Shown here piece after piece: positions 4,454 to 24,482 of a DNA stretch of 64,000 nucleotides (the stretch's first letter is position 1; every line of letters begins with the position of its first letter). The notes under the pieces are model-generated. The model searched no databases. It worked only from the letters and a program-made list of their open reading frames with translations, and was not told where the DNA came from. The position numbers and the translations under genes were made by a program. The DNA is taken from contig CAYVLY010000001.1 in assembly GCA_964452565.1 (NCBI GenBank), positions 515,053 to 579,052 of the forward strand, read 5' to 3'. The stretch is from an uncultured Gammaproteobacteria bacterium. GTDB lineage: Bacteria; Patescibacteriota; Patescibacteriia; UBA9934.

Positions 4454-4660
4454 CCTGGAACCCACACTCTACTCGCCCCAACTGGGGCACATCCAGTGCA
4501 CATGATTCAATCATGTTCAATGGATATCAAAACAACCCCAATCTCTCAGGGGGTTGTTTTGTTTTACAGCCGGCCGATAATTACATTATACCGGCTGGGA
4601 TCCCTCGGCATCCGCCTCGGGATGGACATGAGGGAGTAGGTTGTTTTGTTTTAAACTCTT

Positions 4661-4990
4661 TTATTTCTTTTCCAAAATAGCGTAGATCACTGCATTTTGT
4701 TGACCACCACGTGAGGCAACTTTGGAATACTTCACCAAAGGGTGTCTTTGAACAAATGGTTCCGCTGCTCGTAATAAAGCTCCGGTTCCATGTCCACAAA
4801 TAATCCTAACCAACTCTTCTCCTGCCATAAACGCCCGGTCTAACTCAAGATCAATCTCACGCTCAGCATCATGAACATCCATCCCATGCAAATCAACCTC
4901 TGGAATATCTTGCCGCATCTCCGCTATCGAGACCAGCGTTTCGTAATAGGATTCCCGGCCACGCCCAGCCCTTGTATCACGTCTGTTCAT
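4661..4990 (-). CDS. Smr domain protein
   Basis: 109 aa with an Smr-like core (DLHGM...ICGHGTG). Confidence 0.6.
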   Translation of the reverse strand: MNRRDTRAGRGRESYYETLVSIAEMRQDIPEVDLHGMDVHDAEREIDLELDRAFMAGEELVRIICGHGTGALLRAAEPFVQRHPLVKYSKVASRGGQQNAVIYAILEKK

Positions 4991-5412
4991 AATTTCTTAA
5001 TATCAATTTTTCGAGTTTCTGCATCAACATGATCAATCTTAACCACATGAGTTGGTTCGAATGGCGATCTTTCAAAAACATCTGGCCACTCAACACAGAT
5101 CACGGTCTTATCATTCACATAATCCTCAAGTTCTAAAGCTCCCAGCTCTGACGCATCCTTAAATCGATACAAATCAAGGTGTGCGATCTTTTCTACATGA
5201 TCTCCCTGTACTGGATATTCATTCATAATCGTAAAAGTCGGACTTTTGACCCGTGCATTTGACCCAAGTGCCTCTACCATTCCACGTACAAACACAGTCT
5301 TCCCTGCCCCCAAATCTCCAACTATCTCAATAAACTCTCCACCTTGAAGATTTCTCGCAAACTCTGCTGCGATTTCTTTTGTTTGTAATTCTGATGTTGA
5401 TGTGTAGTTCAT
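4987..5412 (-). CDS. tsaE: tRNA threonylcarbamoyladenosine biosynthesis ATPase TsaE (YjeE)
   Basis: 141 aa with P-loop GDLGAGKT. It sits adjacent to tsaD. Confidence 0.8.
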   Translation of the reverse strand: MNYTSTSELQTKEIAAEFARNLQGGEFIEIVGDLGAGKTVFVRGMVEALGSNARVKSPTFTIMNEYPVQGDHVEKIAHLDLYRFKDASELGALELEDYVNDKTVICVEWPDVFERSPFEPTHVVKIDHVDAETRKIDIKKL

Positions 5413-5497
5413 AAATACAGTAGACAGTATACAGTAGACGGTGTGCAGTTCGAGATCCTGAACTGCCTACCGCATTCTGCCTACCGTATACTATTTT

Positions 5498-6565
5498 CTA
5501 AACAATATCCATATTCGAATCCGCGGCTAAGTCCTCAGGTTCGATATAGTTCTTCTCATCCTGAGCGCGGAAGTATCCTGCCGCAGCGATCATTGCTGCA
5601 TTATCAACTGAATAACTAAATGGTGGAACAAAAACTCGTGTAGCTCGACGTTCACCCTCTTTCTGTATCCTCTTTCGAAGCTCAATATTTGCAGCAACTC
5701 CACCGGCCAAGATAAACGACTTTGGTTTGTACTCCTCAATCGCTCGCATGGACTTCTGAGTTAATACATCTACGACCGCCTCCTGGAATGATGCTGCAAT
5801 ATTTCGTCGAAACACCTCATCTTCGATCTTATCCTCATGCTTTCGAAGCGTGTAAAGCACTGAGGTCTTTAATCCTGAAAAACTAAAATCAAAATTATCT
5901 TGATCAACTAGTCCACGTGGGAAATCAAACATATCTGTTTCACCTCCTACAGCAAGACGTGCAATATGTGGTCCGCCCGGATACGGCAACCCCAACATCT
6001 TTGCAACCTTATCAAAAGCTTCACCTGCAGCATCATCCATTGTCTCACCAATACGCTCAAACTCTCCATGACCTTTCATTAAAACCAATTCCGAGTGACC
6101 ACCTGAAACAATTAAACTAAGCGCGGGAAACTTAGGAACCGGTTGCGGCAAGAACGGAAGCAATCGCTTCGCGCGCGGCAACCAACTTGCATAAATGTGA
6201 CCCTCAAGATGACAGATTGGCACAAGAGGCACCCCCCAACTCCAAGCCAAGGTCTTTGCAACCTCAACTCCGATGCGTAGTGCTGGTGCTAAACCAGGCC
6301 CAGATGTGACAGCAATCGCATCGATCCCCTTTCCATCAAAAGGAATCTCACGCTCCAACATCGGGAAAATAGCAGCCAGATGTTCACGCGCTGCCACCTC
6401 GGGTACCACTCCTCCATATTGCTGATGAGTTTGGATCTGCGATAGTACTGTAGAGTTTTCAACCCTAAGCTGACTGCCTCTGCCCCTCACAAGCGCCAGA
6501 GCGGTCTCATCACAACTTGATTCAATTCCAAGAATTCTCATATGTCTGCAGAATACAGTAGGCAA
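5498..6565 (-). CDS. tsaD: tRNA N6-adenosine threonylcarbamoyltransferase TsaD (Kae1/YgjD)
   Basis: Canonical N-terminus MRILGIESSCDETALAL. The likely true start is the complement of 6539-6541. Confidence 0.9.
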   Translation of the reverse strand: MPTVFCRHMRILGIESSCDETALALVRGRGSQLRVENSTVLSQIQTHQQYGGVVPEVAAREHLAAIFPMLEREIPFDGKGIDAIAVTSGPGLAPALRIGVEVAKTLAWSWGVPLVPICHLEGHIYASWLPRAKRLLPFLPQPVPKFPALSLIVSGGHSELVLMKGHGEFERIGETMDDAAGEAFDKVAKMLGLPYPGGPHIARLAVGGETDMFDFPRGLVDQDNFDFSFSGLKTSVLYTLRKHEDKIEDEVFRRNIAASFQEAVVDVLTQKSMRAIEEYKPKSFILAGGVAANIELRKRIQKEGERRATRVFVPPFSYSVDNAAMIAAAGYFRAQDEKNYIEPEDLAADSNMDIV

Positions 6566-6954: not shown

Positions 6955-8208
6955 GTGAACGAAATGCCCCTTTCCCCCACCACCCTAGCCATCATGGCCA
7001 TGGCTCAGAACCCCGACCTGGCGGTCCTCAGGCTCATCATCCACAGCACCGGCGACTGCCTGCATGTGGACATGCCCGACTTCGGCATCAACAACTGCAC
7101 CGCCATCCCCGACGGAAGCCCCACTAGCTACCGCTGTCAGCTCTGCTGGGACATCAGGACGGGACACCTCGGTACCGACCTGACGGCCGGCACCTACCAG
7201 GTGTCCATGGGCGAGATGAACGGAGTGCAGCTGACCGACGTCGATTTCCGTGACGAACGCGAGCCCCTGGACGACGACGAGCTGACTGCGATCCGCAGCG
7301 CCTTCGCCAAGGCCTTCGGCCCGGTCCGCCGCGAGCTCGTGGAGCAGCTCGGGCTGTGGAACGCGACCCTCGAGGAGCACACGCCCCGCCACCTATGTGA
7401 GCCCATGATGCGCTACCTCGAGTTGCGCATCCAGACCAGCGGCGACAACGTGAGCCACCTGGTCCGCGAGCTCAAGGATGGCACCCTCTGGACCATCGTC
7501 GGCCTCTCCAGCGAGAAGGGCGAACACTGCAAGAGCCAGGCACGACTCCGCGGGAGCGACGAACAGCCCCATCTGCTGGACATTCTCAGGGACCCGAGCT
7601 TGCTCTTCCGCGAGCTCGACCGCTCCATGAGCGACAGATCGCGCCACACCTGGGACATCCCGCGAATCGACTTCGAGTCGCGGATACCAGGCTTCGGTGA
7701 CCTGCTCGAGCGCAACTGCATGCCGCAAATCTTCGAATTCAGCGGCACCTTCGGCAGCGCCTTCGCGAACGCCATGGCCGAGGTCTACCAGCAGTGGGTG
7801 AACCAGCAGATGCCAGGCATGCTGGCCGAGATGCTCCGCGACCGCCGCGAGCAGATCCAGACGGCCGAAAGTGATCTCAAGGCCCACATGACCCCGCCCG
7901 CGCCGGAGCCCGAGGTGGAGGAGCCCGAGATCCAGCCCCCGACCGACGGGCCGCCGTATGACTGCACCGAGCCGCCCGAGAACGACCCCGAGCCCCTGGA
8001 CCCCAGCTTCGACGAGTCGAGCGGCCACAATCCCGAGGACGAAGAGCAGATCGAGCCGCCCACCCCCGTGTCCGAGGATGAACTGCCGGAGGAGCCGGTC
8101 GTGGAGCCCGAGCCCGAGGAGCCGGTAGCCGAGCCGCCCGTGCCCGCCAATGACGAGGCGGACGCCGAGGAGCCCGAGCCCGAGATGGAGGAAGAAGAGG
8201 AGGAGTAG
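6955..8208 (+). CDS. GC-rich hypothetical protein with a long acidic Pro/Glu-rich C-terminal tail
   Basis: 417-aa ORF; the start is GTG 6955 or ATG 6964. The C-terminal 100 aa or so are PEPE/EEEE low complexity. A hairpin terminator follows at about 8250-8313. Confidence 0.4.
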   Translation: MNEMPLSPTTLAIMAMAQNPDLAVLRLIIHSTGDCLHVDMPDFGINNCTAIPDGSPTSYRCQLCWDIRTGHLGTDLTAGTYQVSMGEMNGVQLTDVDFRDEREPLDDDELTAIRSAFAKAFGPVRRELVEQLGLWNATLEEHTPRHLCEPMMRYLELRIQTSGDNVSHLVRELKDGTLWTIVGLSSEKGEHCKSQARLRGSDEQPHLLDILRDPSLLFRELDRSMSDRSRHTWDIPRIDFESRIPGFGDLLERNCMPQIFEFSGTFGSAFANAMAEVYQQWVNQQMPGMLAEMLRDRREQIQTAESDLKAHMTPPAPEPEVEEPEIQPPTDGPPYDCTEPPENDPEPLDPSFDESSGHNPEDEEQIEPPTPVSEDELPEEPVVEPEPEEPVAEPPVPANDEADAEEPEPEMEEEEEE

Positions 8209-8490: not shown

Positions 8491-9507
8491 ATGAACTCGA
8501 TCCATGATGCCTTTACTCCCTTGCACAATCCCGATGCGACCCGCGGGCACATCTTTCTCACCGAGGGTAGACCAATATTCCCGGCCACTATCGATCCTCC
8601 AGTGTTCCCATACTGGAGAGGTGTCAAAGACGGTATCTTCGGCCAAGGCACCCGAGCAAAACAATTCAGTGGTGTGATCATCTTCTCCCTTGAGAAATGG
8701 GAAAAGAAGAGCAGCGCTACTGGATTTGAGGTCGAATGTCACTGGCGCCGCCAGGTCTATCCTCGTGATACTGAGATCCTTTACGCACTTGAAACGGACA
8801 CCTTGGACGGCACGATCTGGGAGCAGCTCAAGCGCGCCATTGGCATGCTTAAAAGAGTTCCCCTGGTTCGAGGCTGCGCGATCGTGATCAAGTTCGGTCA
8901 CCGCGGCGACGAACACCCACCCATTATCGAAATCGTGCCTGACTTCCTGTTTGGCTACGATGTAGTCCAGGAAGAAGTAGTCCAGCAGATCCGCAGACAC
9001 CGTGCTCACGAGGCAAAACTCGGGATCCAACTCTGGAGGGGCGTCCAATCCTTATGGGGAGGCGTTGGGCCAGTATGTCCCGCACCTATCACGCAGCTGC
9101 CTGACCTTTGGGAAGACAGTGACGACATCAGGATTGTCAGCGACAGGCTCGAACTCGTGATGGGCCAATTCCTGCGTCGACTCGAGACCCGTAAGAAGAT
9201 AATCGAACTCATGGCAAAAGCACACATCAAGCCCGCACCTGGAGACAGGCACACGGTCGTTGTACTGGGCGACGATGCTGAGCTGAGAATTACCAGGAGG
9301 ATCATACAGCGAGCAGGTGGGGTCACACGACTTGATCCTGAAGCACAGGACGATCCTCTGCCCATTGAGCCGGATAGTGATCGATTCAAGTTCAGGCCTA
9401 CCAGCGGCACTCCAGAGCTACGCCCCCAAAGGAGGCCGCAGATCGGAAGACGTTTAATCCCCTGGGCGCCGCCACCTCCCAGCATAGAGATCGAAGACGA
9501 CGAGTGA
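8491..9507 (+). CDS. GC-rich hypothetical protein
   Basis: 338-aa ORF after the RBS GAGGAAACC. No recognisable motifs. Confidence 0.45.
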   Translation: MNSIHDAFTPLHNPDATRGHIFLTEGRPIFPATIDPPVFPYWRGVKDGIFGQGTRAKQFSGVIIFSLEKWEKKSSATGFEVECHWRRQVYPRDTEILYALETDTLDGTIWEQLKRAIGMLKRVPLVRGCAIVIKFGHRGDEHPPIIEIVPDFLFGYDVVQEEVVQQIRRHRAHEAKLGIQLWRGVQSLWGGVGPVCPAPITQLPDLWEDSDDIRIVSDRLELVMGQFLRRLETRKKIIELMAKAHIKPAPGDRHTVVVLGDDAELRITRRIIQRAGGVTRLDPEAQDDPLPIEPDSDRFKFRPTSGTPELRPQRRPQIGRRLIPWAPPPPSIEIEDDE

Positions 9508-9619
9508 TACCCTCGAGTGCCGCTTGTCCCTACCGCCCCCACCTTCTTGGTGCGGGGTGGTTCTGCTTTTATTGACAAAAACACTTTTTTCACGTATTCT
9601 TCTCTCGCAAACCATAGAA

Positions 9620-9694
9620 GGCCCCATCGTCTAGTGGTTAGGACATCAGGTTTTCATCCTGGAAACGGGGGTTCGATTCCCCCTGGGGTCACCA
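9620..9694 (+). tRNA. tRNA-Glu (anticodon TTC)
   Basis: Cloverleaf: acceptor GGCCCCA/TGGGGTC, anticodon loop TTTTCAT, T-loop TTCGATT, encoded CCA. The 3' end forms attL of the integrated element. Confidence 0.85.
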
Positions 9695-11201
9695 AAGAGG
9701 ACTCATCCATGTGATGTGTCTTTTTTGTTTGTAAGATTGGCGACAAAGCAGGTGTTTCAAATCCTGAATAGGTGTACACGGGTTTTTCTGGGAAAATCAA
9801 ACTCTGCAACTGCTGTTTTTGCGTGAAGTCGGCGTCAACCCATGTCTTTGGGAGTGTTCCAACGAATCCAAAAACGTAATCAACCGCCTCGTCGATATTG
9901 AATGTTTCCAGCCGCACTTTTGCGAGCTTGGTGTGCTGGTCTGCAATGCGATCTTTTACCTCGGCAAACTCCTCCTTGAAATCATCATCCTCGATCAGTT
10001 CTTTTTTCTTCATTCCAATGAGTGCTTTCTTTTCTTCCTCTATACGATCGAGCTCAACGGTCAGACGTTTACGTTCCTGATTGATTGTTTCGTACTGGTC
10101 GTCCCATACGTCCAAAATAACAGCCTTGAACGCCTTGAGAAACTTTTGTTTGGGAGTGATTTGTTCAAGGTAGTTGAAAAACTCTTGCTCGAGAGTATCT
10201 TTTGGAATTGATTTTACTTTTGTTGGGCACTCTTTGAAGTAACAGCGGTAGTACGGATACTTGTCGCCAGACTTGTTCGTTGAGAACGAAGCGGTCATTG
10301 GACGACCACAAAATCCACAAATCACTTGATGGCGCAGCGGAAACGCATCGTTGCCACGCTTTTTGGCGATCGCATCCTCCTTGCTTGAACCTCTGAGAAG
10401 CGTTTGACACATATTGAATGTTTCCATGCTGACAAGCGGTTCATGCAGTCCTTTGTACTCTTTCCCCTTTGAAACCATGCGCCCTGTGTAAAATACGTTT
10501 CTAACGATCTTTGAAATAAGTTGCGGGGAAATCTTGTTTCCTTGCTCAGTACGCAATCCACGATCATTGACGGCAACTCGCACCTCCTCCAGCGTGTAGA
10601 TGCCTTTTGCAAACTCACCAAAGATCCAGCCCATATGCTCGGCTTTTTCACTGTCAGCTGTGACGATCTTTTCTCCTGCCTTGGTTTTGATGTTTCTGTA
10701 ACCGATGGGAGCTTTCCATTGCCAATATCCTTTTTCGAGTTTAGTCAGCATGCAATCACGGGTGCGCTCTCCACGAATCTGGTTATCAAATTGAGCATTG
10801 GCCGCCATTACGTTACCGATGAACTGACCCGCTGGCGTTTCATCAATGGCTTCTGTTACCGATATGAGCCTGATATTGAGTTTGCTCAGGAGTACCAAGA
10901 TCGTACTATAATCGTTCACGTTTCGTGTCAGACGGTCGACTTTGTAGACAATAATGAAGTCGATGGTTTTGTAGTTCTTCTTGCAGTATTCAAGCATAGC
11001 TTGAAGTCCATCTCGATTTGCCGTCTTAGCCGATACGCCATCATCATGAAACACCTTATCGACGTTACCTTGGATTTCTTTCGCCTTCCTGTGGCACGCA
11101 TTATCCTGCTGCTCCAAGCTGATACCCAAAGCAGCCTGTTCCTCTGTCGAAACACGGTAATAGATGAGGCCATTGAGTTGTAGATCTTGAGTTTCGTTCA
11201 T
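9654..11201 (-). CDS. Large serine recombinase (copy 1; C-terminus altered by integration)
   Basis: 515 aa. It has an N-terminal resolvase-type catalytic domain (YYRVSTEEQ), a recombinase domain and a Cys zinc ribbon (CGFCGRPM...YYRCYFKECP). Its 3' end crosses the att core (LVT) and terminates inside the tRNA sequence. Confidence 0.8.
   Translation of the reverse strand: MNETQDLQLNGLIYYRVSTEEQAALGISLEQQDNACHRKAKEIQGNVDKVFHDDGVSAKTANRDGLQAMLEYCKKNYKTIDFIIVYKVDRLTRNVNDYSTILVLLSKLNIRLISVTEAIDETPAGQFIGNVMAANAQFDNQIRGERTRDCMLTKLEKGYWQWKAPIGYRNIKTKAGEKIVTADSEKAEHMGWIFGEFAKGIYTLEEVRVAVNDRGLRTEQGNKISPQLISKIVRNVFYTGRMVSKGKEYKGLHEPLVSMETFNMCQTLLRGSSKEDAIAKKRGNDAFPLRHQVICGFCGRPMTASFSTNKSGDKYPYYRCYFKECPTKVKSIPKDTLEQEFFNYLEQITPKQKFLKAFKAVILDVWDDQYETINQERKRLTVELDRIEEEKKALIGMKKKELIEDDDFKEEFAEVKDRIADQHTKLAKVRLETFNIDEAVDYVFGFVGTLPKTWVDADFTQKQQLQSLIFPEKPVYTYSGFETPALSPILQTKKTHHMDESSLVTPGGIEPPFPG
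9687..9696 (+). other. att core copy 1 (attL: tRNA-Glu 3' end / element left end)
   Basis: GGTCACCAAA. The left flank is tRNA and the right flank is the element. Confidence 0.7.
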
Positions 11202-11515
11202 ATACCAAAAGGAGTGACTCTCCGTTTGAGCTCAACCACCAAACGATGGAAGAAACGGCAGTCACCCCTTTTCATATCACAACGATTGCATTGTGTTGTG
11301 TACGCTTGGAACGTTGAGCTCATACGCATTATGTCATGTTTACAGTTGATTTTCAACGGGTGTTTTTACTCCCATTCGTTCTTTTTTCCATTTCTCAAAG
11401 GCGAGGTTTGCAAATTGATATTGAGCATCTCGAAGCTGACGAATCTCATCATCGCTCATACCTTTTGCGTCTTCGCCAAGCAAACGCTTGTACTTCGAGA
11501 GCGCAATCATAAATC

Positions 11516-12682
11516 TTACGCATCATTTCCTGATGCGACCTTACGTAGCATTGCTTGTAGCTCATCCTCGCTGATGTTGTATCGCACCTCCCCAGACCCC
11601 CTCTGTACAGCCTCAATCTCACGCATCAACTCGATCTGTCGACTTTCGTCGATATGCCCGTAGCCGTAGGAGCCGAATGTAGTTGCTACATTTTCGTGAC
11701 CAAGGTTCTGGCTTATGGCTTTTTTCTGCTCCTCGGTCAGCGGCTTTTTCATGAACTCCTTGACCAAAAGATGACGCAAGGAGTGAGGATGGTAGTACGG
11801 CTCACCTGCTGCCTTGAAGCGTTTTTCAAAAATCTTTCGAGCAGGGCTTGCGCTCGACCAGTAGACAGGCTCAACTTCCCCCGTGCTGTAATAACTGATG
11901 TTTTCTTTTCCGTTTTCCACCTTGGTGGCAGGAAACAATGGGTCATTCTCCTTGAATCCACGTTCATCTTTGAGATATTCAAACCATGACAAGAAGTATG
12001 TTTGTGCTTCTTTGTATTCAAGTGGGAATAAAGCCGTTGCAATCCGCTTTGAGAACTTGGTTTTGACACCAAGGTTTGGGTCTTGGTCAACCACCATGTC
12101 AACGGGGTCAAACGAGCCCAGAGGCAAGCTCACGATTGCTGAAATGCGTGCCCCTGTCAGCAGGGTAAAGCTCAAGAGAGCCTTGTCACGCATGTCGATT
12201 TCGTTTTTTGGTTCAATCGCTTCAATGACCTTTTTTACCTGTTCCATTGTGGGAATCTTGCGTCGTTTGCTTTGAAGCGCTTGACGAGACTCCTTTTTGC
12301 CAAGTGATAAGTACCCAATATCTGTTTCTTGGATGGCCTGCCGATACCCCTCCTGCCTTGAGAGCCAGTCGAAGAAACCACGTAACTTGCGTAGAGTGTG
12401 GTACTGGTAGCTGATACTTACATTTCCACCTCGCTTGCTTTGGCGAGTGGCGAGCCACGTCTTGAACTCAACAGCACGTTTCTTGTTGAACAGATGAAAA
12501 TCCGCTTCATCCGTAAAGTCCTGCCATTGTAGAATGGCTCCTTCATACGTCGTGATGGAGCTCTGCGAAAAGCCCTTGGACTGCTTGAGGTAGTCGAAAT
12601 ACTTTCGCTTCATCAGCTCGTTTTCATAACGCACTTCTTCCTTCGTTTTTGTGGGTTTTGTGTTGTTTGTAGATTGGGACAT
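11516..12682 (-). CDS. Tyrosine recombinase/integrase family protein (copy 1)
   Basis: 388 aa with phage-integrase-like motifs (TGARISA, HPHSLRHLL, LGHENVATTFGSYGY). Confidence 0.7.
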   Translation of the reverse strand: MSQSTNNTKPTKTKEEVRYENELMKRKYFDYLKQSKGFSQSSITTYEGAILQWQDFTDEADFHLFNKKRAVEFKTWLATRQSKRGGNVSISYQYHTLRKLRGFFDWLSRQEGYRQAIQETDIGYLSLGKKESRQALQSKRRKIPTMEQVKKVIEAIEPKNEIDMRDKALLSFTLLTGARISAIVSLPLGSFDPVDMVVDQDPNLGVKTKFSKRIATALFPLEYKEAQTYFLSWFEYLKDERGFKENDPLFPATKVENGKENISYYSTGEVEPVYWSSASPARKIFEKRFKAAGEPYYHPHSLRHLLVKEFMKKPLTEEQKKAISQNLGHENVATTFGSYGYGHIDESRQIELMREIEAVQRGSGEVRYNISEDELQAMLRKVASGNDA

Positions 12683-12687
12683 ATAGC

Positions 12688-13164
12688 TTATGTGTGAGAG
12701 AATCCGTTAGTCCTTTCGGGAGAGGTTTTGAGTAGGCGAGATATTTTGCTGCCGCACGCCTCACACAGACCCGTTCTGCGATACTGTTCGAGGTTGTTTT
12801 TCCCTATCCGCTTGCCCGTTTTTTCTATTCGTTCGGTACCTTCTTTTGGCCTGACACCTTGGCCGCAGGAAAAGCAGAGGAGTTCATCTGGCTTGAGCTT
12901 CTGCTTCCTGTCGTTTCGTCGAGCTTTGAGAAAGTCGTAAAGCACCTGTCCATCAAAGAGCAGAGGCTTCTTGTTGGACATCATGGGTGCAAGCCCTTGC
13001 TTCATCCATCGCTGTACAGTTTTTCGACCAATACCCAACTCGGCGACAATCTCATTGATGTCGTAGCTATGGCGTTTTTTGATCTTGTTGAGCTGGTACC
13101 GCTTCATGACTTTGAAAGTTCTGGAGAGGCTTTCCCATCTCCGTACCTTTATGCAGCCGTTCAA
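12688..13164 (-). CDS. HTH plus zinc-ribbon DNA-binding protein (copy 1)
   Basis: 158 aa with an HTH (INEIVAELGIGRKTVQRWMKQGL) and a CxxC...CxxC motif (CFSCGQG...CEACGSK). Confidence 0.5.
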   Translation of the reverse strand: MNGCIKVRRWESLSRTFKVMKRYQLNKIKKRHSYDINEIVAELGIGRKTVQRWMKQGLAPMMSNKKPLLFDGQVLYDFLKARRNDRKQKLKPDELLCFSCGQGVRPKEGTERIEKTGKRIGKNNLEQYRRTGLCEACGSKISRLLKTSPERTNGFSHT

Positions 13165-13264
13165 GTGGAGTCGCTGTCAAATCTTTGGGGGTGTGAACAA
13201 AACAAACAAAAAATCCCCATGTTTTACGGGGTTTTTGTGTTTGGGTTATCGACGCTTTACCTTT

Positions 13265-13296
13265 GTTCAAGTATCGACTTGAACGACCACTTGAAC
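13265..13296. promoter_or_regulatory. Operator-like palindrome GTTCAAGT-n4-ACTTGAAC plus a third half-site (copy 1)
   Basis: Perfect 8-bp inverted repeat with an additional ACTTGAAC 4 bp downstream. It lies in the 140-bp gap upstream of the HTH/integrase operon. Confidence 0.4.
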
Positions 13297-13303
13297 GAGT
13301 GTT

Positions 13304-14278
13304 CTATGTACAGCAATCGAGACGGGGGTTGAGTCGATAGCGACTACGACCCTTCTTATCAAAAACCGTCTTTGTGCCGTACTCCAATGCTACGTCGTTT
13401 ATCTGTTTTTTGTATGTTGAAATCGTGCGCTTGTTACCGCTTGCAAACTTATCTGCCAAAACACTCAACTCGACCGATGGGTCATCCTTGGTTCGTGCGT
13501 TGAAAAGATACTCAATCATGTAAACGGTCGGCTGATACAGCGATAGTCTCCCTGCAAAGCGTCCTCGCCCAACCTGCTTGAATAGCAGTTCTTTGTCCTT
13601 TCTCGCCAGAACGATGTCTTTGTCCAGCACAATGGAATCTTCGCCATCAATGGCGTAATCCTGCTGGAAATATGTTGCCTCTGCGACAGCATCAATCTCT
13701 ATACCATTTTCATCAATGTCTGCGATAAGTTCCAGTACGGGAACGGCATGGATATGAAGCGAAGCTGCCTTGTTGTTTGGATCGGCAAGAAATAGCAGGG
13801 TTGGACTACTGCGTGCGATGATGCTTGCCAGATATTCTTCACGCAAGTCATTGAGGTTGGCCACAAAAAAGATGGCTCGTGCGGCACCTGTTATTTCCAT
13901 GGCACCCACATTCCAAAACAAACCACTTTGCTTGAGGTGCGCCTCGGTGAGCTCAACGCCCTCTGCGTCAAGAAACAAGGCAAGAAACCGCCGAACATTC
14001 AAACTGTATGCGTGGCGATCTTCTGGCTTGAGGTACTGTCGATCCGTATCTTTCGAGCAGGCTACAAACAGGCGTTCCTCATCTTGTTGTACTGGAAGCA
14101 GGTGCCCGTCATAGCACGACGTGCATAAAGCCTCACTCCTTCGTGCGGTAGTTTGAATCAAGCCGAGTTTGGTCAAAAACTCCGTCACCTCATTTCCAAC
14201 AAGCTCAACCAATACAGAGCGATCCACTTGTGTGCTGGCACCGAAAAGCTGTAGCCCCTGTCGTAGATCGTTTCTCAT
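13304..14278 (-). CDS. Hypothetical protein, element cargo (324 aa, copy 1)
   Basis: Its start overlaps the stop of the upstream 389-aa gene by 4 bp (ATGA). No recognisable motif. Confidence 0.55.
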   Translation of the reverse strand: MRNDLRQGLQLFGASTQVDRSVLVELVGNEVTEFLTKLGLIQTTARRSEALCTSCYDGHLLPVQQDEERLFVACSKDTDRQYLKPEDRHAYSLNVRRFLALFLDAEGVELTEAHLKQSGLFWNVGAMEITGAARAIFFVANLNDLREEYLASIIARSSPTLLFLADPNNKAASLHIHAVPVLELIADIDENGIEIDAVAEATYFQQDYAIDGEDSIVLDKDIVLARKDKELLFKQVGRGRFAGRLSLYQPTVYMIEYLFNARTKDDPSVELSVLADKFASGNKRTISTYKKQINDVALEYGTKTVFDKKGRSRYRLNPRLDCCT

Positions 14279-15444
14279 ACCTCATTCACGGTATCAATAC
14301 CCCACTTGATGAGGAGCTTCCGCACCAACATGTCTTGCTCTCGGCTTTTGAGATTATGCCCTTTGCCATGCGTTACATCGAAGGTCACAGGGCGCCTTTT
14401 TCCGTTGATTTTGAAAACGACTTTGATTTTGGCTTGAAGAATATCAAAGAAATCAAAGTTGATATTGCGATACTGGAGCATTTCTTTCATGCTTTCAACG
14501 CCACCTTTTGCATCTGATCCAATGGTCAAGTACACCTTGCTCCCATTCGGACGAAATCGCAGGCTCATTGCCTTGAGTTGAACTGATTCGACGTTTTCTT
14601 CCTCCGCTATGGTCAGCGGATCAGGGTCGAGTGATTTGAGTACGTCGAGCCTATATGAGCTTGTTTTACAGTCTTCATAACGCAGACTCCACACATCTTC
14701 AATAACGGCACGTTGCAACCCCTCAACCTTTGTTTGTCCGCCCTTGACTTTCACTTCGAGTTTATTTCCGTTCAGCCAGTATTGAATATACGCTCGTAGA
14801 ATAGGACGTCTTGGCGTATCAGGTTTGAGCTTATCATCTGTCTCAAACTTCAAGTCGTTTACAAAGCGGTCTTCTACATAGGCGACCATGCACAAGCGGT
14901 CAGGTTTTTCGATGAGCTTGATTTTGCACCGTGTCTTTCGTCGACCAAATGTGAACATGTTCTGAATAGACTGTTCAAGTGTCGTGACGCCGTTGGTCAA
15001 AGTCGCCACTTCAACATCTGGGATGACAACACTTTTCCAGCTGCAAATGTTATCGAGCGCATGTTCGTCAACCGAAGTATGGAAAATGTCCTCGTGATTG
15101 ATAAAGAACCACAAGGCTCGGGAGTGATGATTGGGGAGTTCGTCGTACACCTTCCAGTCCACGGACTTTTGCAAGCGTTCTGCGGTTTTTTGTAGATACG
15201 CTACGGAAGCCCAGCCAGACATGTCGCTGATGTCATTGAGTGCCGTGAGAACCTCACCATGCTTTTGCTCATCCTGCGTATCGACTACCACCAAAAATCG
15301 GTCAGCACGAGCTTCATCTTCTTCATCGTCGTGTATAATAAAATCCAACTCCAACTTTTTGGCGAACTCACCAAGGAGTGCGGGGTCAAACTTCATCAAT
15401 AACGATGATGGATCAAAACTTCCTGTACCAGCCATATGTTGCAA
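14275..15444 (-). CDS. Hypothetical protein, element cargo (389 aa, copy 1)
   Basis: First gene of the minus-strand cargo operon. No recognisable motif. Confidence 0.55.
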   Translation of the reverse strand: MQHMAGTGSFDPSSLLMKFDPALLGEFAKKLELDFIIHDDEEDEARADRFLVVVDTQDEQKHGEVLTALNDISDMSGWASVAYLQKTAERLQKSVDWKVYDELPNHHSRALWFFINHEDIFHTSVDEHALDNICSWKSVVIPDVEVATLTNGVTTLEQSIQNMFTFGRRKTRCKIKLIEKPDRLCMVAYVEDRFVNDLKFETDDKLKPDTPRRPILRAYIQYWLNGNKLEVKVKGGQTKVEGLQRAVIEDVWSLRYEDCKTSSYRLDVLKSLDPDPLTIAEEENVESVQLKAMSLRFRPNGSKVYLTIGSDAKGGVESMKEMLQYRNINFDFFDILQAKIKVVFKINGKRRPVTFDVTHGKGHNLKSREQDMLVRKLLIKWGIDTVNEV

Positions 15445-15475
15445 AGATTTGTCAACTTATGGTAACTTACCAAAT

Positions 15476-15676
15476 ATGCAAGATCGGTCAACTCCACGAG
15501 AGACAAAAAAGCTCCCAGAGTTGTTGACTCTCAAAGAGGCGGCTGATTTGTTGCATTGTCACCCGAATACGTTGCGTAACTGGGACAACAAGGGCATCCT
15601 TGTTGCCGTGCGTCTGGGGTCACTGGGTGATCGCAGGTACAAAAAGCAAGACATATTGAAACTGATGGAGAAATAA
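15476..15676 (+). CDS. Xis/AlpA-like HTH DNA-binding protein (putative excisionase/regulator, copy 1)
   Basis: 66 aa (MQDRSTPRETKKLPELLTLKEAADLLHCHPNTLRNWDNKGIL...) with a MerR/excisionase-type HTH. Only the C-terminal part of track ORF 15131-15676 is counted, because the rest overlaps the 389-aa gene on the opposite strand. Confidence 0.6.
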   Translation: MQDRSTPRETKKLPELLTLKEAADLLHCHPNTLRNWDNKGILVAVRLGSLGDRRYKKQDILKLMEK

Positions 15677-15686
15677 AAGATGAGGT

Positions 15687-16460
15687 ATGCAGGTCGAACA
15701 AAGTAAGAATCTTGATCAGCAATTTTGTGAACATGGAAACTTCCTATTTTCATGTCCAGAATGTAAAGAAAGAGGTAGGGATATAATTTTGAGAATAGCT
15801 GACAGGAGATCGGTGCCTGATACTGAACAGGTTGAAAAAGTCAGGAATCACATTGAGAAGGTGGTACTGGGCGCTCTTTCAATGTTTGTTTCAAGGTTCG
15901 AGACTTATTGCAGAAAAGGAAACGAACTCGAGATTGTCATAGTTGATGCGACCGATCAAGATTTTGGTTCTGGAGAAGTGAAAGGTACTACTATTGACAT
16001 CCCGTTGTTAGAAGAGGAAAGGATGAGCTTCATTTTGCAAAGAATGGTTGAGAAATCTGATGACATTACGAAAAAACAACTCGAAAACATTGGTATTGCT
16101 ATCACTTGTTCGACGATATTACACGAAGCAATACATAGTTTTTTGGAGTCAAAGCCACACTCGAGTCTTCATGAAAAGATAGAAGCAATGAGTAGTATTC
16201 CTGATCCAGAAGGGATATTTTCCACACTATGCGATGAAGCCATTGCATATTCCATGCAATCCATTTTTTCAGAAACTATAGAGCCCTTTGGAAATACTGC
16301 TCCAAGAGTTGACCAAGATAAGGAAGCTAGTCTGGTCGCTGTAAGAAAAAAACTAGGTATGGCCATCGAAAAAGATATGCGAAAGGTGTTATATGGAAGG
16401 CTGGACACAGAATCATTCTTTGATATTCTTATACAAAAAGCAAAAACACTAACTCAATAA
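15687..16460 (+). CDS. HExxH-motif protein (putative metallopeptidase, ImmA/IrrE-like?) (copy 1)
   Basis: 257 aa with an N-terminal CxxC...CPEC and an internal ILHEAIH (HExxH). Family assignment is uncertain. Confidence 0.4.
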   Translation: MQVEQSKNLDQQFCEHGNFLFSCPECKERGRDIILRIADRRSVPDTEQVEKVRNHIEKVVLGALSMFVSRFETYCRKGNELEIVIVDATDQDFGSGEVKGTTIDIPLLEEERMSFILQRMVEKSDDITKKQLENIGIAITCSTILHEAIHSFLESKPHSSLHEKIEAMSSIPDPEGIFSTLCDEAIAYSMQSIFSETIEPFGNTAPRVDQDKEASLVAVRKKLGMAIEKDMRKVLYGRLDTESFFDILIQKAKTLTQ

Positions 16461-16471
16461 CAACAATATCT

Positions 16472-16960
16472 ATGTCAGAGACACGACGTGGACAAGAGCA
16501 TTCCCCCGATTCAGCAAACGAAATAGTCGAATTGCAACGAGAACAGATGAAACAAAACTTTGATGAAATTGCAGTAAAAGCCTTGTTCCAGTTGAGGAGA
16601 AGTTTGTTAGGGAAAGATTATCGAAACTTGCCCAATTTGAGAGCGCTTCCTGAACCGTTTGAACCAAACGCAGATATATCACATGATACACTCATGAAAA
16701 TATCATCTGATTTTATTACAGAAATGAGGTTGCAAATATCAGCTATCATTGCGGAGGCAACGAGAAGATTATCTTTGTATGATCAAAAGAAACAAGAGTA
16801 TCCAATTGATGCAAACATGGCACTTGAGGAGGTCTTGATTGAAAAAGCTTTTGATTTCTTGCGAGACCAAAAAAGAATAATCAGCAACAACCGCGGTACA
16901 CTTGGTGGATGGATGAAGACAATAGTAGAAAGAGAGAAAAATATAGTTGAGCATGACTAG
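16472..16960 (+). CDS. Hypothetical protein (162 aa, copy 1)
   Basis: ORF at the right end of the element. No motifs. Confidence 0.45.
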   Translation: MSETRRGQEHSPDSANEIVELQREQMKQNFDEIAVKALFQLRRSLLGKDYRNLPNLRALPEPFEPNADISHDTLMKISSDFITEMRLQISAIIAEATRRLSLYDQKKQEYPIDANMALEEVLIEKAFDFLRDQKRIISNNRGTLGGWMKTIVEREKNIVEHD

Positions 16961-18579
16961 TCGAGAGAAAAGGGTTGCATTTTTTGAGATCCAAAAATAT
17001 GCGGCAATGTCTCCGACCATTGCTTGATTTGCTGGATCAGGGTGTTCCAATGCTCAATACAGTAGGTCACCAAAGAGGACTCATCCATGTGATGTGTCTT
17101 TTTTGTTTGTAAGATTGGCGACAAAGCAGGTGTTTCAAATCCTGAATAGGTGTACACGGGTTTTTCTGGGAAAATCAAACTCTGCAACTGCTGTTTTTGC
17201 GTGAAGTCGGCGTCAACCCATGTCTTTGGGAGTGTTCCAACGAATCCAAAAACGTAATCAACCGCCTCGTCGATATTGAATGTTTCCAGCCGCACTTTTG
17301 CGAGCTTGGTGTGCTGGTCTGCAATGCGATCTTTTACCTCGGCAAACTCCTCCTTGAAATCATCATCCTCGATCAGTTCTTTTTTCTTCATTCCAATGAG
17401 TGCTTTCTTTTCTTCCTCTATACGATCGAGCTCAACGGTCAGACGTTTACGTTCCTGATTGATTGTTTCGTACTGGTCGTCCCATACGTCCAAAATAACA
17501 GCCTTGAACGCCTTGAGAAACTTTTGTTTGGGAGTGATTTGTTCAAGGTAGTTGAAAAACTCTTGCTCGAGAGTATCTTTTGGAATTGATTTTACTTTTG
17601 TTGGGCACTCTTTGAAGTAACAGCGGTAGTACGGATACTTGTCGCCAGACTTGTTCGTTGAGAACGAAGCGGTCATTGGACGACCACAAAATCCACAAAT
17701 CACTTGATGGCGCAGCGGAAACGCATCGTTGCCACGCTTTTTGGCGATCGCATCCTCCTTGCTTGAACCTCTGAGAAGCGTTTGACACATATTGAATGTT
17801 TCCATGCTGACAAGCGGTTCATGCAGTCCTTTGTACTCTTTCCCCTTTGAAACCATGCGCCCTGTGTAAAATACGTTTCTAACGATCTTTGAAATAAGTT
17901 GCGGGGAAATCTTGTTTCCTTGCTCAGTACGCAATCCACGATCATTGACGGCAACTCGCACCTCCTCCAGCGTGTAGATGCCTTTTGCAAACTCACCAAA
18001 GATCCAGCCCATATGCTCGGCTTTTTCACTGTCAGCTGTGACGATCTTTTCTCCTGCCTTGGTTTTGATGTTTCTGTAACCGATGGGAGCTTTCCATTGC
18101 CAATATCCTTTTTCGAGTTTAGTCAGCATGCAATCACGGGTGCGCTCTCCACGAATCTGGTTATCAAATTGAGCATTGGCCGCCATTACGTTACCGATGA
18201 ACTGACCCGCTGGCGTTTCATCAATGGCTTCTGTTACCGATATGAGCCTGATATTGAGTTTGCTCAGGAGTACCAAGATCGTACTATAATCGTTCACGTT
18301 TCGTGTCAGACGGTCGACTTTGTAGACAATAATGAAGTCGATGGTTTTGTAGTTCTTCTTGCAGTATTCAAGCATAGCTTGAAGTCCATCTCGATTTGCC
18401 GTCTTAGCCGATACGCCATCATCATGAAACACCTTATCGACGTTACCTTGGATTTCTTTCGCCTTCCTGTGGCACGCATTATCCTGCTGCTCCAAGCTGA
18501 TACCCAAAGCAGCCTGTTCCTCTGTCGAAACACGGTAATAGATGAGGCCATTGAGTTGTAGATCTTGAGTTTCGTTCAT
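16957..18579 (-). CDS. Large serine recombinase (copy 2; full-length attP-type form, 540 aa)
   Basis: Identical to copy 1 down to the att core. It then continues 37 codons into the right end of the preceding element copy (…LVTYCIEHWNTLIQQIKQWSETLPHIFGSQKMQPFSLD). Confidence 0.8.
   Translation of the reverse strand: MNETQDLQLNGLIYYRVSTEEQAALGISLEQQDNACHRKAKEIQGNVDKVFHDDGVSAKTANRDGLQAMLEYCKKNYKTIDFIIVYKVDRLTRNVNDYSTILVLLSKLNIRLISVTEAIDETPAGQFIGNVMAANAQFDNQIRGERTRDCMLTKLEKGYWQWKAPIGYRNIKTKAGEKIVTADSEKAEHMGWIFGEFAKGIYTLEEVRVAVNDRGLRTEQGNKISPQLISKIVRNVFYTGRMVSKGKEYKGLHEPLVSMETFNMCQTLLRGSSKEDAIAKKRGNDAFPLRHQVICGFCGRPMTASFSTNKSGDKYPYYRCYFKECPTKVKSIPKDTLEQEFFNYLEQITPKQKFLKAFKAVILDVWDDQYETINQERKRLTVELDRIEEEKKALIGMKKKELIEDDDFKEEFAEVKDRIADQHTKLAKVRLETFNIDEAVDYVFGFVGTLPKTWVDADFTQKQQLQSLIFPEKPVYTYSGFETPALSPILQTKKTHHMDESSLVTYCIEHWNTLIQQIKQWSETLPHIFGSQKMQPFSLD
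17065..17074 (+). other. att core copy 2 (element-element junction, attP-like)
   Basis: GGTCACCAAA flanked by the element right end (CAATACAGTAGG) and the element left end (GAGGACTCATCC). Confidence 0.7.
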
Positions 18580-18893
18580 ATACCAAAAGGAGTGACTCTC
18601 CGTTTGAGCTCAACCACCAAACGATGGAAGAAACGGCAGTCACCCCTTTTCATATCACAACGATTGCATTGTGTTGTGTACGCTTGGAACGTTGAGCTCA
18701 TACGCATTATGTCATGTTTACAGTTGATTTTCAACGGGTGTTTTTACTCCCATTCGTTCTTTTTTCCATTTCTCAAAGGCGAGGTTTGCAAATTGATATT
18801 GAGCATCTCGAAGCTGACGAATCTCATCATCGCTCATACCTTTTGCGTCTTCGCCAAGCAAACGCTTGTACTTCGAGAGCGCAATCATAAATC

Positions 18894-20060
18894 TTACGCA
18901 TCATTTCCTGATGCGACCTTACGTAGCATTGCTTGTAGCTCATCCTCGCTGATGTTGTATCGCACCTCCCCAGACCCCCTCTGTACAGCCTCAATCTCAC
19001 GCATCAACTCGATCTGTCGACTTTCGTCGATATGCCCGTAGCCGTAGGAGCCGAATGTAGTTGCTACATTTTCGTGACCAAGGTTCTGGCTTATGGCTTT
19101 TTTCTGCTCCTCGGTCAGCGGCTTTTTCATGAACTCCTTGACCAAAAGATGACGCAAGGAGTGAGGATGGTAGTACGGCTCACCTGCTGCCTTGAAGCGT
19201 TTTTCAAAAATCTTTCGAGCAGGGCTTGCGCTCGACCAGTAGACAGGCTCAACTTCCCCCGTGCTGTAATAACTGATGTTTTCTTTTCCGTTTTCCACCT
19301 TGGTGGCAGGAAACAATGGGTCATTCTCCTTGAATCCACGTTCATCTTTGAGATATTCAAACCATGACAAGAAGTATGTTTGTGCTTCTTTGTATTCAAG
19401 TGGGAATAAAGCCGTTGCAATCCGCTTTGAGAACTTGGTTTTGACACCAAGGTTTGGGTCTTGGTCAACCACCATGTCAACGGGGTCAAACGAGCCCAGA
19501 GGCAAGCTCACGATTGCTGAAATGCGTGCCCCTGTCAGCAGGGTAAAGCTCAAGAGAGCCTTGTCACGCATGTCGATTTCGTTTTTTGGTTCAATCGCTT
19601 CAATGACCTTTTTTACCTGTTCCATTGTGGGAATCTTGCGTCGTTTGCTTTGAAGCGCTTGACGAGACTCCTTTTTGCCAAGTGATAAGTACCCAATATC
19701 TGTTTCTTGGATGGCCTGCCGATACCCCTCCTGCCTTGAGAGCCAGTCGAAGAAACCACGTAACTTGCGTAGAGTGTGGTACTGGTAGCTGATACTTACA
19801 TTTCCACCTCGCTTGCTTTGGCGAGTGGCGAGCCACGTCTTGAACTCAACAGCACGTTTCTTGTTGAACAGATGAAAATCCGCTTCATCCGTAAAGTCCT
19901 GCCATTGTAGAATGGCTCCTTCATACGTCGTGATGGAGCTCTGCGAAAAGCCCTTGGACTGCTTGAGGTAGTCGAAATACTTTCGCTTCATCAGCTCGTT
20001 TTCATAACGCACTTCTTCCTTCGTTTTTGTGGGTTTTGTGTTGTTTGTAGATTGGGACAT
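18894..20060 (-). CDS. Tyrosine recombinase/integrase family protein (copy 2)
   Basis: Identical duplicate of 11516-12682. Confidence 0.7.
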   Translation of the reverse strand: MSQSTNNTKPTKTKEEVRYENELMKRKYFDYLKQSKGFSQSSITTYEGAILQWQDFTDEADFHLFNKKRAVEFKTWLATRQSKRGGNVSISYQYHTLRKLRGFFDWLSRQEGYRQAIQETDIGYLSLGKKESRQALQSKRRKIPTMEQVKKVIEAIEPKNEIDMRDKALLSFTLLTGARISAIVSLPLGSFDPVDMVVDQDPNLGVKTKFSKRIATALFPLEYKEAQTYFLSWFEYLKDERGFKENDPLFPATKVENGKENISYYSTGEVEPVYWSSASPARKIFEKRFKAAGEPYYHPHSLRHLLVKEFMKKPLTEEQKKAISQNLGHENVATTFGSYGYGHIDESRQIELMREIEAVQRGSGEVRYNISEDELQAMLRKVASGNDA

Positions 20061-20065
20061 ATAGC

Positions 20066-20542
20066 TTATGTGTGAGAGAATCCGTTAGTCCTTTCGGGAG
20101 AGGTTTTGAGTAGGCGAGATATTTTGCTGCCGCACGCCTCACACAGACCCGTTCTGCGATACTGTTCGAGGTTGTTTTTCCCTATCCGCTTGCCCGTTTT
20201 TTCTATTCGTTCGGTACCTTCTTTTGGCCTGACACCTTGGCCGCAGGAAAAGCAGAGGAGTTCATCTGGCTTGAGCTTCTGCTTCCTGTCGTTTCGTCGA
20301 GCTTTGAGAAAGTCGTAAAGCACCTGTCCATCAAAGAGCAGAGGCTTCTTGTTGGACATCATGGGTGCAAGCCCTTGCTTCATCCATCGCTGTACAGTTT
20401 TTCGACCAATACCCAACTCGGCGACAATCTCATTGATGTCGTAGCTATGGCGTTTTTTGATCTTGTTGAGCTGGTACCGCTTCATGACTTTGAAAGTTCT
20501 GGAGAGGCTTTCCCATCTCCGTACCTTTATGCAGCCGTTCAA
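20066..20542 (-). CDS. HTH plus zinc-ribbon DNA-binding protein (copy 2)
   Basis: Identical duplicate of 12688-13164. Confidence 0.5.
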   Translation of the reverse strand: MNGCIKVRRWESLSRTFKVMKRYQLNKIKKRHSYDINEIVAELGIGRKTVQRWMKQGLAPMMSNKKPLLFDGQVLYDFLKARRNDRKQKLKPDELLCFSCGQGVRPKEGTERIEKTGKRIGKNNLEQYRRTGLCEACGSKISRLLKTSPERTNGFSHT

Positions 20543-20681
20543 GTGGAGTCGCTGTCAAATCTTTGGGGGTGTGAACAAAACAAACAAAAAATCCCCATGT
20601 TTTACGGGGTTTTTGTGTTTGGGTTATCGACGCTTTACCTTTGTTCAAGTATCGACTTGAACGACCACTTGAACGAGTGTT

Positions 20682-22822: not shown

Positions 22823-22853
22823 AGATTTGTCAACTTATGGTAACTTACCAAAT

Positions 22854-23054
22854 ATGCAAGATCGGTCAACTCCACGAGAGACAAAAAAGCTCCCAGAGTT
22901 GTTGACTCTCAAAGAGGCGGCTGATTTGTTGCATTGTCACCCGAATACGTTGCGTAACTGGGACAACAAGGGCATCCTTGTTGCCGTGCGTCTGGGGTCA
23001 CTGGGTGATCGCAGGTACAAAAAGCAAGACATATTGAAACTGATGGAGAAATAA
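22854..23054 (+). CDS. Xis/AlpA-like HTH protein (copy 2)
   Basis: Identical duplicate of 15476-15676. Confidence 0.6.
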   Translation: MQDRSTPRETKKLPELLTLKEAADLLHCHPNTLRNWDNKGILVAVRLGSLGDRRYKKQDILKLMEK

Positions 23055-23064
23055 AAGATGAGGT

Positions 23065-23838: not shown

Positions 23839-23849
23839 CAACAATATCT

Positions 23850-24338: not shown

Positions 24339-24443
24339 TCGAGAGAAAAGGGTTGCATTTTTTGAGATCCAAAAATATGCGGCAATGTCTCCGACCATTG
24401 CTTGATTTGCTGGATCAGGGTGTTCCAATGCTCAATACAGTAG

Positions 24444-24453
24444 GTCACCAAAA
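24444..24453 (+). other. att core copy 3 (attR: element right end / chromosome)
   Basis: GGTCACCAAA followed by the chromosomal hairpin AGAACACGC-tccc-GCGTGTTCTTTT. Confidence 0.7.
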
Positions 24454-24482
24454 GAACACGCTCCCGCGTGTTCTTTTGATTT
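24454..24482 (+). terminator. Displaced tRNA-Glu terminator hairpin
   Basis: AGAACACGC-tccc-GCGTGTTCT followed by TTTTGATTTTG, immediately after the attR core. Confidence 0.5.

Follow-up and report, generated by a model that had tools for sequence, protein, structure and literature searches.

A large serine recombinase as the probable tRNA integrase of a 7.4-kb element of a Patescibacteria-type host, and a conserved tyrosine recombinase module beside it

The window analysed here, a 64,000-nucleotide stretch of contig CAYVLY010000001.1 (assembly GCA_964452565.1), contains a unit of 7,378 bp that is present in two head-to-tail copies, 100% identical, at positions 9687-24452, and that encodes two unrelated recombinases, a large serine recombinase (LSR) and a tyrosine recombinase. 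The unit is best explained as an integrative element of a Patescibacteria-type host, here a dimer in the 3′ end of a tRNA-Glu(UUC) gene, with the LSR as its integrase and the tyrosine recombinase as a resolvase of multimers, and the probability of this explanation as a whole is put at roughly 0.6. The first-pass annotation of this DNA had already recognised a 7.4-kb element with both recombinase classes, which is borne out by the unit length and by the Pfam assignment of both proteins, and had left open which of the two makes the tRNA insertion; comparison with related loci, about 170 in number, largely settles that question in favour of the LSR. It was silent on the tandem duplication, on the position of attP inside the LSR open reading frame (ORF), and on the recurrent pairing of the tyrosine recombinase with an LSR.

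Self-comparison of the window shows 9687-17074 to be the same sequence as 17065-24452, with all parts of the unit repeated at +7,378. A 10-bp core, GGTCACCAAA, is found at the 3′ end of the tRNA, at the copy-copy junction and before the terminator of the tRNA (Table 1), and the identity block common to attL, the junction and attR comprises only these 10 bp, which cover the last 8 nt of the tRNA. The empty attB can be reconstructed as …CCCCCTGG-GGTCACCAAA-AGAACACGC…. The unit has the layout of a tRNA-integrated element: the tRNA gene at one end is intact, its 3′ end recurs as a direct repeat at the opposite end, and the LSR gene sits at the boundary. In the integrated state the tRNA-Glu gene is parted from its own terminator, now 14.7 kb away at 24450-24477, and transcription reading through from the tRNA would be antisense to that of the LSR gene, which may add to its control.

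The protein encoded at the att site is, by its domains and catalytic residues, a complete three-domain member of the LSR family that is under selection. Its Resolvase (PF00239; 4e-32), Recombinase (PF07508; 2.2e-11) and Zn_ribbon_recom (PF13408; 9.7e-9) domains are all assigned by Pfam, with which PHROGs and NCBIfam agree, and in an alignment of 27 sequences the YYRVST motif with S18 and the DRLTR motif (VDR90LTR93) are invariant, as are C295, C298 and C325 of the CxxC...C...C zinc site, C320 being nearly so. This confirms the first reading of the protein as a large serine recombinase. Its profile matches the A118 and TP901-1 integrase structures, and the nearest NCBIfam models, CcrB and XisF, score far under their cut-offs. 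A database search returned 771 relatives, mostly from Patescibacteria, most of them 507-515 aa long at about 92% query coverage. As had been noted from the sequence, the gene overlaps the core. It also overlaps the tRNA-Glu(UUC) gene, whose T-arm and acceptor, in reverse complement, encode the ten-residue tail of the integrated form. The consensus C-terminus of the family, PRGIEPxLxG, is likewise the translated reverse complement of the T-arm.

To compare geometry, 80 genomic loci encoding LSR homologues of 28-61% identity were fetched. The stop codon of the LSR ORF lies inside an antisense tRNA gene in 65 of them, mostly tRNA-Glu and otherwise tRNA-Ala, -Arg or -Lys, and LSRs of as little as about 30% identity still show this arrangement, examples coming also from Saccharibacteria and from a metagenome-assembled genome of Bifidobacterium breve. 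A homologue of the tyrosine recombinase, by comparison, accompanies the LSR at only two of the 80 loci, and among 148 ORFs of 230-520 aa within 10 kb upstream in 34 loci that carry the LSR only, Pfam found no Phage_integrase family represented at least twice. Eight other loci have candidate attR repeats of 10-20 bp, each of which takes in the 3′-terminal nucleotides of the tRNA; their intersection is about 6 nt. Because of this shared geometry, the near absence of the tyrosine recombinase, the lack of a recurrent Phage_integrase family and the attR repeats, the LSR is very probably the tRNA integrase. The attP core lies inside the coding sequence of the LSR itself, and recombination with the tRNA 3′ end would keep the tRNA intact and exchange the last 35 residues of the LSR for a 10-residue tail read from the opposite strand of the tRNA T-arm and acceptor. 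Sequence and comparison thus support an insertion step in which an LSR with attP in its own ORF apparently swaps a non-conserved tail.

The converse assignment, in which the tyrosine recombinase inserts the element into the tRNA in the classical manner and the LSR is an accessory resolvase or invertase, is in keeping with a published generalisation by which tyrosine integrases alone target tRNA genes, a tRNA 3′-end target not being known for LSRs (PMC4383910), and the 10-bp identity block has room for an overlap region of 6-8 bp. It is nevertheless highly improbable in view of the locus counts given above. Different LSR subfamilies moreover go with different tRNA species alongside a conserved tyrosine recombinase, the core is situated within the LSR ORF and 1.8 kb from the tyrosine recombinase gene, and the serine protein has the recombinase and zinc-ribbon domains of a full LSR and is no small resolvase.

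The region between the LSR gene and its upstream neighbours includes a structured leader RNA motif of about 130 nt, of which a second copy lies at 18585-18722 on the reverse strand. A promoter for the LSR (TTGAAA at 11356-11351 and CATAAT at 11333-11328, with a 17-nt spacer) overlaps the stop codon of a small upstream gene encoding a 56-aa protein, p56. The leader comprises a long-range helix P1 (GAGCTCAAC / GTTGAGCTC), a variable P2, a hairpin P3 and a helix P4 of 15-19 bp that, together with a U-run ending 6 nt before the LSR ATG, resembles a terminator. P4 crosses P1 and P2, so that the RNA would form either a pseudoknot or alternative folds. In the largest subgroup of leaders (23 sequences) 99.5% of cells pair, as against 40-58% with slid partners, and six pairs show compensatory changes; between subgroups P1 is replaced wholesale with its complementarity kept. 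A covariance model (R1) matches the window only at the two leader sites. Among the 80 LSR loci it detects the leader at about 46, in each case a short distance 5′ of an ORF of LSR size, and a search of Rfam 15 gave no match at E ≤ 1. The leader may be read as a transcription-attenuating control of the integrase. Two candidate palindromic operators (11223-11236 and 11313-11326) were rejected, the pair being helix P1 of the leader. At one related locus, L046, two units of leader RNA and LSR (4629-6366 and 9829-11515) stand about 5.2 kb apart and a 13-bp repeat of a tRNA-Arg 3′ end lies near the end of the first LSR-sized ORF, as if a pair of related elements had stacked up at a single tRNA.

The p56 gene was found by tblastn at 29 further loci beyond the two contigs of the window itself, adjoining the LSR gene. 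It lies about 150-400 bp upstream of the LSR in loci L003-L066, and in some elements upstream of the gene pair described below. The protein may be a directionality factor or a regulator of the LSR.

The tyrosine recombinase had been described from the sequence as a 388-aa tyrosine integrase-family protein, and this description stands: Pfam assigns Phage_integrase (PF00589) at 8.6e-11 and Phage_int_SAM_1 (PF02899) at 2e-5, above cut-off. The loss of catalytic residues, which would have made it a mere remnant, was looked for in 27 homologues (51-88% identity), where R179, K209/K212, H300, R303, H329 and Y341 are each invariant or conserved in at least 90% of the sequences, and the enzyme is accordingly predicted to be catalytically intact and under selection. 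Only the SAM-like and catalytic domains are present in Pfam searches, with no arm-binding domain detected. The NCBIfam Xer models reach 33-62 bits against cut-offs of 220-371, and the XerC, XerD and XerA equivalogs among them 56-62 bits against 220-335, so the protein is no Xer orthologue. Profile searches found no solved relatives, and a single-sequence search gave marginal similarity to XerD only. The family numbers more than 1,100 proteins, in 120 clusters at 52% identity or more, from Patescibacteria, Peregrinibacteria and Gracilibacteria.

Neighbourhoods of the tyrosine recombinase were compared in three genome contigs, 80 metagenome loci and proteobacterial plasmid records. The recurrent gene order is a helix-turn-helix (HTH) protein of the HTH_17/zinc-ribbon type, then the tyrosine recombinase, the LSR and an antisense tRNA. 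A homologue of the HTH gene is found upstream of the recombinase in nearly all loci. Downstream DNA of 900 bp or more was available for 64 loci; in 50 of these the start of an LSR follows on the same strand no more than 900 bp away, and in five more an LSR lies 3-5 kb downstream, and in comparable loci restriction-modification cargo lies directly downstream of the tyrosine recombinase. The partner LSRs are mutually 19-95% identical and belong to elements at seven or more tRNA species (Glu, Ala, Ser, Gln, Trp, Asn and His). In 41 complete triplets the tyrosine recombinases have the highest median pairwise identity (55%), followed by the HTH proteins (47%) and the LSRs (27.5%), and the identity of the tyrosine recombinase tracks that of the HTH protein (Spearman rho 0.66) and barely that of the LSR (rho 0.16). 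Between two of the loci, L105 and L115, the tyrosine recombinases are 81% and the LSRs 21% identical. Because of this difference in co-variation, the HTH and tyrosine recombinase genes are one evolutionary unit and the LSR another, their adjacency being kept despite repeated swapping. Taken together, the comparisons indicate that it is not the tyrosine recombinase that inserts the element into the tRNA; with the upstream HTH gene this enzyme forms a distinct and tightly conserved module of two genes, which many elements carry beside varied LSRs. The same order of HTH, tyrosine recombinase and LSR genes occurs in Legionella adelaidensis (NZ_LR134433.1, 250814-254005), where the 3′ end of the LSR gene overlaps an antisense tRNA-Asn; in this gammaproteobacterium the arrangement adjoins AbiE and restriction-modification genes. 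One clade (L086, L087, L092 and L094) has a downstream protein of about 130 aa followed by an XerC-like tyrosine recombinase of 301 aa in place of the LSR, and is also without the conserved motif described next.

In loci L095-L166 the interval from the HTH stop codon to the tyrosine recombinase start holds a conserved motif of about 65 nt, …GATTRATAGGTTATTTATYACTACTCGTAAATGTCCCAYTTAA…AAAAGTAAAAATATG, with the core ACTCGTAAATGTCCCA; the copy in the window is degenerate. An exact GGGACATTT stands about 40 nt ahead of the aligned recombinase start in 43 of 87 loci searched, and the motif is single-copy per element, with 11 extra matches against 8.6 expected. RNAalifold found no consensus RNA fold on either strand. 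A stem formed from the flanking repeats was rejected, RNAalifold giving no structure and the apparent direct repeat consisting partly of AT-rich near-palindromes. A short upstream ORF beginning MSH near the motif varies in length. Two mosaic breakpoints between otherwise close elements map to the left edge of the motif: L163 and L166 are 95% identical upstream of it and 72% downstream, and L089 and L143 are 0% identical upstream and 94% downstream.

Two contigs from independent public read sets (Logan contigs) bear on the state of the element. A short-read contig of 8,803 bp holds a single copy and spans both junctions, starting within the tRNA and reaching the chromosome on the right, and a second, of 7,388 bp, is exactly the unit plus the core and ends at both core edges, where branch points of the assembly graph are expected. 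A monomeric insertion exists in one sample, and an attP junction, from a dimer or a free circle, exists in at least one other. The tandem dimer of the window could accordingly be an assembler's rendering of one integrated copy together with free circles, the attP-like junction then coming from excised circles. The perfect identity of the copies over 7,378 bp, the two public contigs and the lack of any other tandem array among 176 related loci all suit this account, which falls somewhat short of even odds, the sequence fitting a physical dimer and a mixture alike. The attP junction is present in the reads under either account, and the conclusions on the recombinases are therefore unchanged.

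The most likely role of the tyrosine recombinase, assigned tentatively and at less than even odds, is that of a multimer resolvase. With its HTH partner it would act by conservative recombination at a site inside the element, and such recombination would return dimers or tandem copies to monomers in the manner of Cre or Xer. A serine integrase does not recombine attP with attP and for that reason cannot itself resolve multimers. The role is favoured by the occurrence of a dimer in the window and a monomer in another sample, by the single-copy conserved motif beside the gene, and by the simple Xer-like architecture of the enzyme. It is also favoured by the near mutual exclusion of the pair and a rolling-circle Rep in the sampled loci, the elements with the pair seemingly being without the Rep that would otherwise produce monomers. 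Dimer resolution, inversion and a second att specificity had been the roles proposed in the first-pass annotation; the first of these stands as the best guess, unproven, and inversion is disfavoured because the conserved motif is single-copy and flanking inverted repeats are lacking. In the search for flanks of an invertible segment or cassette, no second motif copies were seen and the inverted repeats of the element proved short and scattered.

Several observations weigh against the explanation of the LSR as integrase and the tyrosine recombinase as resolvase. No replication gene was identified in this element by Pfam, PHROG, NCBIfam or structure searches, which leaves the origin of multimers unexplained, and the dimer persists in the assembly, as would not be expected with an active resolvase and a site in both copies, unless perhaps the enzyme is silent when integrated or the dimer is itself a product of assembly. 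A canonical recombination site, with two inverted arms and a 6-8 bp spacer, was not found, a dyad scan of the junction-motif alignment gave no convincing dyad, and the motif may be a regulatory or translational signal instead of the recombination site of the tyrosine recombinase. Inspection of the att core for its crossover type yielded the 10-bp identity block, within which a dyad scan of attP and attB placed no central crossover dinucleotide. More distant homologues of the tyrosine recombinase (34-40% identity) occur in viral contigs of IMG/VR without an adjacent LSR, and the HTH_17/excisionase-type gene directly upstream gives the appearance of a classical xis-int pair. These last two points would suit a tyrosine recombinase that acts as a second integrase on a separate attP and a chromosomal or plasmid target, so that the element could land at either of two sites, the HTH_17 protein being its excisionase, as would the intact catalytic residues and the clade of which three members (L086, L092 and L094) are without an adjacent LSR. 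A second integrase, and with it the second att specificity proposed earlier, is nonetheless unlikely: the HTH and recombinase genes are adjacent and the motif unsplit in every examined locus with both, the LSR is the gene at the tRNA boundary in at least 50 of 64 loci, no arm-binding domain is detected and the window yielded no second pair of direct repeats. A similarly low probability attaches to the pair being a module-exchange or hitchhiking cassette that recombines at a site upstream of its own gene and either shuffles backbones and integration modules or moves itself beside LSR genes. Such a cassette would agree with the two independent breakpoints at the left edge of the motif, with a pair that stands upstream or downstream of the p56 gene depending on the element, with the phylogenetic uncoupling of the tyrosine recombinase from the LSR, and with the cargo, including restriction-modification genes, found between the two in some loci. 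The breakpoints are only two, however, and L143 seems partly decayed; the motif is without canonical core-site symmetry, flanking repeats and further motif copies are absent, and homologous recombination at a conserved stretch would give the same breakpoints.

The remainder of the unit consists of backbone genes (Table 1). The HTH protein would be 158 aa long if started at the TTG at 13164, and the terminator-like hairpin parts the gene for the 324-aa protein from the transcription unit of the HTH, tyrosine recombinase and p56 genes. Foldseek aligns the 324-aa protein with the DNA-binding domains of PhoB, ToxR and AdeR at template-modelling (TM) scores of 0.6-0.7, and the 386-aa protein found no structural match. 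The gene for the 66-aa HTH protein is also called in the Logan contigs. Neither an HUH Rep (G2P) nor a Zot-type ATPase was found in this element by Pfam, PHROG or NCBIfam. The 34 LSR-only loci, by comparison, include 18 REP_ORF2-G2P ORFs by Pfam as well as Zot and RepSA, about half of the loci having a Rep beside the LSR, which it directly adjoins; at L036, L042, L046 and L048 a REP_ORF2-G2P or Phage_CRI ORF lies immediately by the LSR at about 8560-9640. These LSR-only relatives are probably, judging from their gene content, inovirus-like or rolling-circle elements in tRNA-Glu of Candidate Phyla Radiation (CPR) bacteria. The 25 Pfam families listed for 27 loci that carry the tyrosine recombinase (76 ORFs) include no Rep, and the cargo of pair-bearing elements includes restriction-modification, reverse transcriptase and copper-resistance genes. 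Just upstream of the tRNA, a 417-aa ORF (6955-8208, forward strand) reaches 66% G+C in surroundings of about 45%, and its C-terminus is long, acidic, repetitive and rich in proline (EPEPEE...); the G+C content of the window ranges from 0.38 to 0.66, the composition being noted at 7001-8000.

Table 1. Positions of the features of the element and its target in the window (strand: +, forward; -, reverse;., none assigned)
Feature	Position	Strand	Evidence or remark
tRNA-Glu(UUC), intact, CCA encoded, integration target	9620..9694	+	ARAGORN; Rfam tRNA 65 bits
LSR, integrated form, 515 aa	9654..11201	-	Pfam; last 10 residues PGGIEPPFPG
attL core GGTCACCAAA, final 8 nt of tRNA plus 2	9687..9696	.	left edge of 7,388-bp self-identity
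Structured leader RNA motif 5′ of LSR	11207..11344	-	covariance model hit, E 0.0016; covariation; no Rfam match
56-aa protein (p56) beside LSR	11340..11510	-	tblastn; no family match
Tyrosine recombinase, 388 aa, Xer-like simple architecture (SAM-like core-binding and catalytic domains)	11516..12682	-	Pfam, NCBIfam, alignment
Degenerate junction motif copy CTATATGTCCCAAT, its ATG being the recombinase start codon here	12660..12712	-	motif alignment
HTH_17 protein with C-terminal CxxC...CxxC, 139 aa from ATG	12688..13107	-	Pfam HTH_17
Terminator-like hairpin and T-run after 324-aa gene	13205..13240	-	sequence read directly
324-aa backbone protein, C-terminal OmpR/PhoB-type winged helix	13304..14278	-	AlphaFold2 (AF2) model, confidence score (pLDDT) 88.5; Foldseek
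386-aa backbone protein	14275..15435	-	PHROG 37634 (unknown function) 2.6e-9
66-aa MerR/excisionase-type HTH protein	15476..15676	+	Pfam HTH_17/MerR on longer ORF; TIGR01764 'excise' 8e-6
Two genes, 257 aa and 162 aa	15687..16960	+	no family match (Pfam, PHROG, NCBIfam)
LSR, attP form, 540 aa, second copy	16957..18579	-	ORF crosses copy-copy junction; Pfam
attP-like core between unit copies	17065..17074	.	36 codons ahead of the stop of the 540-aa LSR ORF
Tyrosine recombinase, second copy, identical	18894..20060	-	ORF list, self-identity
attR core	24443..24452	.	tRNA's own terminator hairpin next, 24450-24477

A broader proposal makes the HTH and tyrosine recombinase pair a partner module dedicated to serine-integrase elements and conserved from Patescibacteria to Legionella, accompanied by a widespread, undescribed clade of tRNA-targeting LSRs under the control of a new leader RNA; it is somewhat unlikely to hold in full. 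If true, it would mean a division of labour between two recombinases, the pair performing attP-attP multimer resolution or the exchange of integration modules, which lie beyond a serine integrase. A limited literature search, which is no proof of absence, turned up no account of tRNA-targeting LSRs and none of a module that joins HTH, tyrosine recombinase and LSR genes, and a cross-phylum conserved module of this kind at tRNA-inserted elements is new relative to the literature searched. LSRs that target tRNA genes contradict the rule, used in island-finding software and reviews, that only tyrosine integrases do so (PMC4383910). They would form a large family of natural serine integrases whose short att sites lie in the universally conserved 3′ ends of tRNAs; serine integrases are preferred tools of genome engineering, and tRNA sites exist in every organism. 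The recurrent architecture makes the need for two unrelated recombinases testable in a 7.4-kb element, an uncatalogued structured RNA seems to gate the expression of the integrase, and the setting is the CPR bacteria, whose mobile elements are barely characterised.

Among known systems, the LSR resembles phiC31, Bxb1, TP901-1, A118 and CcrAB of SCCmec in its three domains, its catalytic motifs and the very short identity between attP and attB. Like integrases of the phiC31/Bxb1 type it is encoded at the element boundary with a small neighbour gene that could encode a directionality factor, and it departs from characterised members in its tRNA 3′-end target, in an attP within the ORF that alters the C-terminus, and in its leader RNA, features that are known here from the sequence. 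Integrases of the SSV1 type in archaea and intP of the Myxococcus phage Mx8 reportedly also have attP within their own gene and a tRNA target, integration altering or splitting the integrase coding sequence; those are tyrosine recombinases, whereas the enzyme here is a serine recombinase of which only a non-conserved C-terminal tail is exchanged. The inovirus-like or rolling-circle elements of CPR bacteria (Roux et al. 2019, PMC6813254) are like the LSR-only relatives in having a G2P Rep, sometimes Zot, and tRNA insertion by a serine recombinase module, and the element of the window differs from them in having no Rep or Zot, in its HTH and tyrosine recombinase pair and in an unrelated backbone. 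Prochlorococcus tycheposons (bioRxiv 10.1101/2020.12.28.424599) each have a tyrosine or a serine integrase and no conserved pair, and belong to another host phylum with another backbone.

The tyrosine recombinase differs from integrases of the lambda Int type, which have an N-terminal arm-binding domain. With Cre/loxP of phage P1, XerCD/dif-cer and ResD/rfsF it shares a simple architecture without such a domain and one conserved candidate site by the gene, and it differs from them in its low Xer scores, the absence of a solved relative and of a canonical site, and its obligate HTH/zinc-ribbon partner. Phage P1 carries Cre together with the serine invertase Cin, and thus both enzyme classes in one element. 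The unit described here is similar in being a small mobile replicon with a second, different rearrangement enzyme.

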